A stretch of 64,000 nucleotides of DNA from Escherichia coli. Lineage in GTDB: Bacteria > Pseudomonadota > Gammaproteobacteria > Enterobacterales > Enterobacteriaceae. The notes under the pieces are model-generated. The model made no database searches. It saw only the letters and a program-made list of their open reading frames with translations, and was not told where the DNA came from. Positions 61,553-64,000 of this stretch are shown one piece after another (position 1 is the stretch's first letter; each line of letters starts with the position of its first letter). The stretch is taken from assembly GCF_044324785.1 (NCBI RefSeq), contig NZ_CP172127.1; one strand, given 5' to 3'. The position numbers and the translations under genes were made by a program.

Positions 61553-63070
61553 ATGTCTGAACAACACGCACAGGGCGCTGACGCGGTAGTCGATCTTAAC
61601 AATGAACTGAAAACGCGTCGTGAGAAGCTGGCGAACCTGCGCGAGCAGGGGATTGCCTTCCCGAACGATTTCCGTCGCGATCATACCTCTGACCAATTGC
61701 ACGCAGAATTCGACGGTAAAGAGAACGAAGAACTGGAAGCGCTGAACATCGAAGTTGCCGTTGCTGGCCGCATGATGACCCGTCGTATTATGGGTAAAGC
61801 GTCTTTCGTTACCCTGCAGGATGTGGGTGGCCGCATTCAGCTGTACGTTGCCCGTGACGATCTGCCGGAAGGCGTTTACAACGAGCAGTTCAAAAAATGG
61901 GACCTCGGCGATATCCTCGGCGCGAAAGGTAAACTGTTCAAAACCAAAACTGGCGAACTGTCTATCCACTGCACCGAGCTGCGTCTGCTGACCAAAGCAC
62001 TGCGTCCGCTGCCGGATAAATTCCACGGCTTGCAGGATCAGGAAGCGCGCTATCGTCAGCGTTATCTGGATCTCATCTCTAACGATGAATCCCGCAACAC
62101 CTTTAAAGTGCGCTCGCAGATCCTCTCTGGTATTCGCCAGTTCATGGTGAACCGCGGCTTTATGGAAGTTGAAACGCCGATGATGCAGGTGATCCCTGGC
62201 GGTGCCGCTGCGCGTCCGTTCATCACCCACCATAATGCGCTGGATCTCGACATGTACCTGCGTATCGCGCCGGAACTGTACCTCAAGCGTCTGGTGGTCG
62301 GTGGCTTCGAGCGTGTATTCGAAATCAACCGTAACTTCCGTAACGAAGGTATTTCCGTACGTCATAACCCAGAGTTCACCATGATGGAACTCTATATGGC
62401 TTACGCAGATTACAAAGATCTGATCGAGCTGACCGAATCGCTGTTCCGTACTCTGGCACAGGATATTCTCGGTAAGACGGAAGTGACCTACGGCGACGTA
62501 ACGCTGGACTTCGGTAAGCCGTTCGAAAAACTGACCATGCGTGAAGCGATCAAGAAATATCGCCCGGAAACCGACATGGCGGATCTGGACAACTTCGACT
62601 CTGCGAAAGCGATTGCTGAATCTATCGGTATCCACGTTGAGAAGAGCTGGGGTCTGGGCCGTATCGTTACCGAGATCTTCGAAGAAGTGGCAGAAGCACA
62701 TCTGATTCAGCCGACCTTCATTACTGAATATCCGGCAGAAGTTTCTCCGCTGGCGCGTCGTAACGACGTTAACCCGGAAATCACTGACCGCTTTGAGTTC
62801 TTTATCGGTGGTCGTGAAATCGGTAACGGCTTTAGCGAGCTGAATGACGCGGAAGATCAGGCGCAGCGCTTCCTGGATCAGGTTGCCGCGAAAGACGCAG
62901 GTGACGACGAAGCGATGTTCTACGATGAAGATTATGTCACCGCACTGGAACACGGCTTACCGCCGACAGCAGGTCTGGGAATTGGTATCGACCGTATGGT
63001 AATGCTGTTCACCAACAGCCATACCATCCGCGACGTTATTCTGTTCCCGGCGATGCGTCCGGTGAAATAA
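61553..63070 (+). CDS. lysS: lysyl-tRNA synthetase (constitutive)
   Basis: 505-aa [47 protein letters not shown]... Confidence 0.96.
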
Positions 63071-63089
63071 GCATTACGTTATGCTCACA

Positions 63090-63116
63090 ACCCCGGCAAA
63101 TGTCGGGGTTTTTTAT
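63090..63116. terminator. lysS terminator, probably shared with convergent idi
   Basis: ccccggca-aat-gtcgggg followed by ttttttattt. Confidence 0.75.
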
Positions 63117-63661
63117 TTAAGCTGGGCAAATGCAGATAATCGTTTTCTGGCTTCGCGATTTGTCGCCTGCATCACCATCCACGGACTGAACGCCCACGGT
63201 GTGGCATCAATACCGTGTAATACATCTGCTAAATCACACCATTGATAATCCATCACTTCATCATCGTTGATCTGTAACGCACTGGTCGTGCGTGCGGCAA
63301 ATACCGGACACACTTCATTTTCCACAATGCCATTCGGATCGGTGGCGCGGTAGCGAAAGTCAGGATAGACCAGTTCTGGTGCTGTTATTTCCACACCAAG
63401 CTCATAACGGCAACGGCGGATCACCGCGTCTTTGTTGCTTTCTCCCAGTTGTGGGTGCCCACAAACCGAGTTAGTCCACACGCCCGGCCACGCTTTTTTG
63501 CTAAGGGCGCGGCGGGTAACTAATAATTGCCCTTTGGCATTAAACAGCCAACTGGAGAACGCGAGATGTAAGAGAGTGTCTGCCGTGTGTGCGGCATACT
63601 TTTCCAACGTACCCGTGGGAACTCCCTGTGCATTCAATAAAATGACGTGTTCCGTTTGCAT
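63113..63661 (-). CDS. idi: isopentenyl-diphosphate delta-isomerase
   Basis: 182-aa [44 protein letters not shown]...; Nudix-type fold. Confidence 0.95.
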
Positions 63662-63783
63662 AATTTCTCACATGTAATTCTAATCACTCATCATTATAGA
63701 TAATTGAAGAGTGAAATGATTAACCAAGTGAGCGTTTATCGACAACCGCCCGTTTTGAGCGGATGTCGACAGGTAAAAACCAT

Positions 63784-63909
63784 TTAAAAAAGCAGCATCA
63801 TATATTTGAAGCGACTTTCAATGGCCATTGCAACACAGTCAGAAATGACAGGAATAGAGAGAGTAAAAAGCAACAACAGACTGAATATAGCGCGCATTAA
63901 AAGATTCAT
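63784..63909 (-). CDS. yqfG: small hydrophobic protein (41 aa), probably the K-12 small protein YqfG
   Basis: Reverse-strand ATG at 63907-63909 preceded by ggag; translation MNLLMRAIFSLLLLFTLSIPVISDCVAMAIESRFKYMMLLF; below the 60-aa cutoff of the ORF track. Confidence 0.45.
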   Translation of the reverse strand: MNLLMRAIFSLLLLFTLSIPVISDCVAMAIESRFKYMMLLF

Positions 63910-64000
63910 ATTATTCTCCATGCTCATTTTTCTTCAGCTTGCGCATCAGAAGCCACATACGTACTGTCCTGACTTTTAAATCTTTATCAGAGACGGATTC

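Follow-up and report, generated by a model that had tools for sequence, protein, structure and literature searches.

Near the end of a 64,000-nt stretch of Escherichia coli DNA, which we refer to as the window, a 41-codon open reading frame lies on the reverse strand between uacT and idi. The locus raises the question of whether so short a frame is a gene and, if it is, what its product does beside a urate permease. The original prediction had described it as an unlisted small hydrophobic protein with the length of YqfG of E. coli K-12.

Translation of the window gave the peptide MNLLMRAIFSLLLLFTLSIPVISDCVAMAIESRFKYMMLLF (41 aa), and both the peptide and its coordinates were exactly as claimed (Table 1). 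The ORF had gone unlisted solely because 41 aa falls under the cut-off of the ORF track, as had been stated. All 41 residues are identical to those of the CDS annotated as yqfG (WP_001050745.1, "yqfG: protein YqfG" in RefSeq), and the yqfG CDS of two annotated RefSeq records mapped to this interval with base-exact ends, so the suggested identity was correct in sequence (100%) and in position. Comparison with annotated E. coli regions showed the gene flanked by uacT and idi, with all three on one strand. An exact-sequence look-up returned "MULTISPECIES: protein YqfG [Enterobacteriaceae]" on at least 1000 contigs. By megablast, the region 63400..64000 was present in 5401 of 5426 complete E. coli genomes; the full-length matches listed each carried annotated idi, yqfG ("protein YqfG") and uacT, and mostly "protein YqfH" as well, and the DNA flanking yqfG was 97-99.8% identical to that of other E. 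coli. It is virtually certain that the ORF is yqfG, a real and already annotated gene. Hemm and colleagues reportedly detected YqfG in 2008 as a chromosomally tagged protein. As a gene it is already known, and the copy in the window agrees with it in sequence, locus and hydrophobic helix; the ORF itself is a rediscovery of an annotated E. coli gene that was missed through a length threshold. Nothing differs from the K-12 YqfG described as an RseP class I substrate, which is the same gene with 100% identity over 41 aa; the RseP work in PMC4597795 and PMC10470546 was done on this protein. No family in Pfam or NCBIfam matched YqfG or YqfH. An Rfam scan of 63500..64000 gave a single match, to an Enterococcus sRNA model, at the chance-level score of 20 bits against a gathering score of 100.

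Table 1. Positions of genes, signals and peptide segments around yqfG, in coordinates of the window.
Feature	Position	Strand	Remarks
lysS	61553..63070	(+)	Convergent with idi
Canonical intrinsic terminator	63089..63110	(+)	AACCCCGGCAAATGTCGGGGTT then TTTTATTT
idi	63113..63661	(-)	Downstream of yqfG, beyond the hairpin and the idi promoter region
Perfect TATAAT	63693..63698	(-)	32 nt ahead of the idi ATG
Listed sigma-70 promoter	63745..63716	(-)	TTGTCG-18-AATCAT
YqfH frame	63716..63787	(+)	23 aa, MINQVSVYRQPPVLSGCRQVKTI
Stem-loop	63737..63771	(-)	13 nt past the yqfG stop; no U-tract
Antisense ORF	63763..63900	(+)	45 aa, MSTGKNHLKKQHH…
yqfG CDS	63784..63909	(-)	41 codons plus TAA at 63784..63786; ATG at 63907..63909
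Most conserved family core	63808..63858	(-)	Codons 18-34 (SIPVISDCVAMAIESRF), from family alignments
Predicted transmembrane core	63841..63891	(-)	Codons 7-23 (AIFSLLLLFTLSIPVIS), conserved R6 before it; from hydropathy
uacT 3' end (urate/H+ symporter)	63911..64000	(-)	Runs off the window end; TAA stop at 63911..63913; annotation transfer
Shine-Dalgarno-like GGAG	63916..63919	(-)	6-nt spacer AATAAT to the yqfG ATG; inside the last uacT codons

The start site was examined together with the length of the frame. A GGAG had been noted about 8 nt upstream, which is a fair description of the motif found in the window, and a purine-rich equivalent (GGTG, AGGA or GGAGG) occupied the corresponding place, within the last uacT codons, in all 11 orthologous loci. 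Read mechanically, the ORF runs to 47 aa through in-frame upstream ATGs at 63927 and 63921 (MSMENN-). We rejected the 47-aa form as the true product, as these ATGs have no Shine-Dalgarno sequence and are absent in Klebsiella indica; the published mutagenesis numbering (Ile-8, Leu-12, Phe-15; PMC4597795) fits the 41-aa form. Length by itself says little. Of the 25 ORFs of 20 aa or more that overlap 62500..64000, about a dozen are 41 aa or longer, so the length of this ORF is not above chance, and it is conservation that makes yqfG real.

We measured conservation at 80 loci anchored on Idi, one genome per species, and searched each for a YqfG-like frame with tblastn. The frame was found in 11 of 11 idi loci with uacT upstream, at 54-98% identity, and in 0 of 69 loci without uacT. 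The uacT-bearing loci comprise five Escherichia lineages (including E. albertii and E. whittamii), five Citrobacter lineages and Klebsiella indica, and in every one the ORF was intact, initiated with ATG and 40-41 codons long. Loss of the reading frame in related genomes had been named as the observation that would count against the prediction; we found the frame kept instead in Escherichia, Citrobacter, Klebsiella, Enterobacter and others. Nei-Gojobori dN/dS values against the window were 0.03-0.13 within Escherichia and for Citrobacter sp. MGH106, and 0.2-0.4 for the C. amalonaticus group and Citrobacter sp. R56, while dS was saturated for K. indica. The variable alignment columns were distributed 22/11/35 over codon positions 1/2/3, and both other sense frames contained stops. 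On the opposite strand the mirror frame is open too, with a weaker signal, as expected from coinciding wobble positions. Natural yqfG variants carry indels of +2, +4 and -3 codons, all of which preserve the frame, and a few rare alleles lose the stop through a change of TAA to AAA or through slippage in a T6 run. Because the frame is intact, dN/dS is low, third positions vary in excess and indels keep the frame, we read yqfG as a selected peptide and not a chance ORF. On these sequence comparisons the gene is genuinely coding and under purifying selection, which indirectly favors its endogenous translation.

Other readings of the same DNA fared less well. We rejected the 45-aa antisense ORF as coding, since it is open only by mirroring the codon phase of yqfG. 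It overlaps nearly all of yqfG and is open in several species, and its seemingly low pN/pS is a by-product of the wobble coincidence. A leader peptide for idi was also rejected, for the frame is never present in idi loci that lack uacT. The same applied to a Hok-like type I toxin, given that yqfG would be an operon-distal cistron coupled to a permease and that the antisense ORF across it lacks conservation. Antisense RNAs control the Hok toxins, whereas YqfG, encoded by the probable distal cistron of a permease operon, is not known to be toxic.

RefSeq places a second small frame at the locus, "protein YqfH", which is antisense to the 3' end of yqfG and spans the hairpin downstream of it. YqfH was reported via chromosomal tagging (VanOrsdel et al. 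2018, PMC6001520). Its frame is not conserved within Escherichia, with a frameshift in E. coli SCPM-O-B-8794 and premature stops in Escherichia sp. E1V33 and E. whittamii; the stop is lost in E. albertii, and the frame is unrecognizable in Citrobacter and Klebsiella.

A word-seeded search found YqfG in Escherichia and Shigella only. A profile search of 1.84 billion representative proteins returned 25 matches at E <= 1e-3, all of them 21-80 aa long. The distant members are 38-42 aa in length and 25-56% identical, and come from Klebsiella michiganensis/oxytoca/pasteurii, K. aerogenes, Enterobacter, Citrobacter, Salmonella enterica subsp. diarizonae and Apirhabdus/Erwinia, where all are labelled "hypothetical protein". 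The family architecture consists of a basic residue, a hydrophobic helix and the core (A/S)-(I/L/V)-P-x5-I-(A/T)-x-(G/A)-x-x-(S/G)-R-F, and P20, R33 and F34 are invariant in 14 divergent members. When the neighborhoods of eight distant members were examined, seven lay immediately after a gene for a 481-490-aa Xan_ur_permease (PF00860), and the eighth, on a contig of 966 nt, followed a 45-codon fragment with the same permease C-terminus. The junctions between permease and small ORF ranged from a 1-nt overlap to a 4-nt gap (-1 to +4 nt). Three of the seven permeases were 85-90% identical to UacT and four were only about 42% identical; across all the linked permeases compared, the class close to UacT spanned 81-90%. 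The gene beyond the small ORF varied, being tyrosine-phosphatase-like (Y_phosphatase3), a molybdopterin oxidoreductase, xdhC/yqeC, a sigma-54 activator or, in E. coli, idi. The E. coli NCS2 paralogs XanQ, which is 26% identical to UacT, and GhxQ have neither the permease tail motif described below nor a coupled small ORF.

These comparisons bear on the most skeptical account of the locus, in which translation in cis is all that matters, for example by protecting the 3' end of the uacT mRNA or preventing Rho termination, while the peptide is functionless or, at the extreme, the frame is a chance one. The many chance ORFs of similar length nearby and the absence of a matching Pfam or NCBIfam model would agree with that account. 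It is nevertheless hard to reconcile with selection at the amino-acid level (dN/dS of about 0.1, and the three invariant residues persisting at 25-55% overall identity), with indel variants that stay in frame and a length held at 38-42 aa, or with a downstream context so variable that there is no conserved cis target. We consider it highly improbable.

YqfG is strongly hydrophobic (GRAVY 1.44), with the best 15-residue window at residues 8-22 (mean Kyte-Doolittle 2.56). Its only charges are R6 and D24/E31/R33/K35, which flank a single hydrophobic core. An AF2 model built from the 14-sequence family alignment was one continuous helix over residues 3-40 with pLDDT 88; it is featureless and adds only that the peptide is helical. 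The single transmembrane helix proposed at the outset fits the hydropathy, the all-helical model and the published membrane integration and RseP cleavage.

In PMC4597795 (eLife 2015) YqfG appears as a small membrane protein with no assigned function; its type II (N-in/C-out) orientation comes solely from TMHMM, and Hemm et al. 2008 (Mol Microbiol 70:1487) is cited for the original identification. In the eLife study HA-MBP-YqfG was integrally membrane-associated, and wild-type RseP, but not the E23Q mutant, turned it into a slightly smaller fragment, the cleavage occurring "presumably within its TM". The helix-destabilizing substitutions I8P and L12P in YqfG gave allele-specific suppression of RseP loop mutants, and the authors left the physiological significance of the cleavage for future study (PMC4597795). 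RseP is an S2P intramembrane protease, and YqfG was later placed among its "class I" substrates, being cleaved by RseP expressed from a plasmid or from the chromosome, as a 3xFLAG fusion, and by the purified protease in vitro (PMC10470546, mBio 2023, Table 1); by the authors' own caveat, all RseP assays were on N-terminally tagged, plasmid-expressed YqfG. The small membrane proteins YkgR, YshB, Blr, HokB and HokE from the same work resemble YqfG in size, in having a single transmembrane helix and in class I cleavage in four assay formats, but their sequences are unrelated to it.

The same features could be taken to describe a signal-peptide-like precursor, in which R6 and the hydrophobic core export a C-terminal peptide of about 18 aa (DCVAMAIESRFKYMMLLF) to the periplasmic face and RseP clears the remnant. 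The C-terminal half is indeed the most conserved part of the protein, and the V-I-S that precedes D24 in E. coli would satisfy the -3/-1 rule. We looked for a conserved signal peptidase I site in the family alignment and found none. Members from Escherichia and Citrobacter have S at position -1, and those from Klebsiella and Enterobacter have Q or D (…VQQ before A, …IQD before A), residues that signal peptidase I does not accept, so that the family shares no cleavage site. HA-MBP-YqfG moreover accumulates at the expected full-length size in a delta-rseP strain (PMC4597795), and AF2 gives one continuous helix. A precursor of this kind is quite improbable.

UacT-type permeases carry a cytoplasmic C-terminal extension of about 35 aa that ends in R-T-[VM]-R-M-W-L-L-[LM]-R-K. 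Permeases with an overall identity of only about 42% share this tail motif, which XanQ and GhxQ lack. A protein search with the last 56 aa of UacT yielded nothing but gene fragments. We used it to run the association between permease and small ORF in reverse, scanning metagenome contigs for the back-translated motif and scoring the DNA past the permease stop with an HMM of the family. The scan yielded at least 120 loci, 119 of them testable, and among the matches listed the small ORF was present at 111 of the 119. At 104 of the 119 loci listed an HMM-positive ORF stood at the junction, nearly always at -1 to +3 nt; two were scored from a later start (+9 or +14), and one was at chance level (E = 0.41). 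Five more had an ORF starting about 80 nt downstream, behind a hairpin, one carried a stop-loss allele and one a frameshifted allele on a contig of 1x coverage. The remaining eight loci listed had no such ORF within 400 nt.

The eight loci that lack the ORF fall into three permease lineages, drawn from both classes of permease; past the permease gene these lineages show rearranged DNA or a canonical terminator. The small ORF is therefore dispensable at least in those three lineages, and since the tail motif is kept there, the role of the tail must be separate from YqfG. We accordingly rejected a specific dependence of the tail motif on YqfG: tail-bearing permeases without YqfG exist. The five contigs in which the ORF begins some 80 nt past the permease stop show in turn that tight translational coupling is not universal. 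Judged by gene neighborhood, the association of YqfG with the permease is strong, old (it spans permeases of 42% identity) and permease-specific, and it is not absolute.

The clusters with the 42%-class permease, from Enterobacter and Klebsiella (L086, L087, L090 and L093), have a gene for a molybdopterin oxidoreductase of about 715 aa, beginning MKKVTTVCPYCA…, about 11-27 nt past the small ORF. Annotation sometimes divides this gene into pieces of 139 aa and about 560 aa, which would agree with an in-frame stop, for instance a selenocysteine codon, or with an artefact of assembly or gene calling.

In the 11 idi-anchored loci the junction between uacT and yqfG was invariant, consisting of the stop, one nucleotide and the yqfG ATG, though the stop itself varied among TAA, TGA and TAG. 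Upstream, a 435-nt intergenic region separates E. coli uacT from the divergent ygfT, and nothing lies between uacT and yqfG. Re-initiation on yqfG is possible because its ATG lies 1 nt past the uacT stop and its Shine-Dalgarno sequence inside the uacT 3' end. The layout implies, but does not prove, a bicistronic uacT-yqfG unit with termination-reinitiation coupling, in which yqfG would be the distal gene.

The stem-loop behind yqfG had a minimum free energy of -24.1 kcal/mol (z = -4.9), and none of 200 shuffled sequences was as stable. A hairpin followed yqfG in 12 of 12 species, with compensatory changes in 4 of 10 pairs and an entirely different sequence in K. indica. A consensus promoter/terminator scan called neither this hairpin nor the idi promoter. 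As it has no U-tract and was not called by the scan, we read it as a 3'-end or stabilizer structure and not as a proven intrinsic terminator, and it is likely to form the 3'-end or terminator structure of the uacT-yqfG transcript.

A constitutive sigma-70 promoter is listed between yqfG and idi (Shimada et al. 2014, PMC3946193). When mapped to the window, its TTGTCG (-35) element overlaps the 3' arm of the hairpin. The perfect TATAAT ahead of idi is a second candidate promoter element for that gene.

Taking these data together, we propose that YqfG serves the UacT-type urate permease as a dedicated accessory partner whose translation is coupled to that of the permease, possibly a stabilizer, an assembly aid or a modulator of activity, and we give this proposal an even chance of being right. 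A related version, which we hold a shade more tentatively, at somewhat under even, would make YqfG and its Enterobacterales relatives of about 40 aa a small-protein subunit or modulator that is dedicated to UacT-type NCS2/NAT permeases and co-translated with them; IP-x5-IA-x-G-x-ESRF would be the contact, and RseP would set the abundance of YqfG. The evidence lies in genome context: the contrast between 11 of 11 and 0 of 69 idi loci, the seven of eight distant members, the 111 of 119 tail-motif loci listed, and the variability of the other neighbors. Gene adjacency speaks for co-expression and co-inheritance, not for physical interaction.

The mechanism we envisage would run as follows. The gene yqfG would be the distal cistron of a uacT-yqfG transcript whose 3' end may be marked by the conserved hairpin. 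Ribosomes that finish UacT would re-initiate on yqfG, so that the two proteins would arise side by side at the membrane. Contact with the permease could then fall to the conserved C-terminal half of the peptide, on the side near the periplasm (IP-x5-IA-x-G-x-ESRF), and RseP, by cutting within the transmembrane helix, might remove YqfG that is unassembled or in excess. Among the papers available for searching, none mentions YqfG together with UacT. UacT (YgfU) is said by Papakostas and Frillingos (2012) to be an active urate transporter when expressed from plasmid constructs, with no reported need for YqfG.

It also stands to consider that YqfG is a real membrane protein whose target is something other than UacT, such as the nearby urate and purine catabolic machinery (YgfT/YgfS-type Fe-S oxidoreductases, molybdoenzymes), another membrane component or a general membrane role, and that it merely rides on the permease transcript. 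Clusters with the permease and the small ORF also hold ygfT/ygfS-like, ygfK/ssnA-like and molybdopterin oxidoreductase genes, which belong to anaerobic urate degradation (PMC12507026), and the three permease lineages that do without the small ORF fit a target elsewhere. The permease is, however, the only constant neighbor, while the other cluster genes come and go or switch side by taxon. The gene that follows yqfG in E. coli, idi, is unrelated, and in most lineages the small ORF starts within a few nucleotides of the permease stop. We regard a target other than UacT as less likely.

A partnership of YqfG with UacT would have precedents among other transporters. Small-protein partners encoded with or near their targets include KdpF for KdpABC, AcrZ for AcrB, MgtS for MgtA and PitA, SgrT for PtsG and MntS for MntP. 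Each of these peptides is, like YqfG, a single helix of under 50 aa, and YqfG has a gene that is conserved beside a transporter gene and probably co-translated with it, as for such partners. They share no sequence similarity with YqfG, whose target would be a secondary transporter of the NCS2/NAT family. We know of no small-protein partner for this family, and if the proposal is true YqfG would be, to our knowledge, the first described for an NCS2 transporter.

What is new at this locus is the membership of YqfG in a small family of Enterobacterales proteins whose genes are tied to those for urate-type NCS2 permeases. For a decade the protein has served as a model RseP substrate without an assigned function, and its strict genomic coupling to urate permeases gives it a concrete and testable candidate function. 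Genes around uacT specify the pathway, elucidated only recently, by which gut bacteria degrade urate anaerobically (PMC12507026), and a true partnership would make YqfG an overlooked component of a gut-bacterial locus for urate uptake and degradation. Several groups reportedly seek to reduce uric acid with probiotic E. coli that overexpress YgfU/UacT, and any effect of YqfG on UacT stability or activity would be relevant to such designs.

Two further observations concern the genes downstream. The canonical intrinsic terminator on the forward strand lies in the 42-nt gap between the end of lysS at 63070 and the end of idi at 63113, and presumably serves lysS. None of the GTDB Escherichia representatives retrieved (L003-L007) has an Idi more than 93% identical to that of the window, whereas UacT is 98-99% identical in most of those loci and 93.8% in L003; the 601-nt region around yqfG is at least 99% identical in only 248 of the 5401 E. 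coli genomes that have it. With so low an Idi identity beside a mostly well-kept UacT, and so few matches at 99% or above, idi appears unusually variable or mosaic compared with its neighbors.
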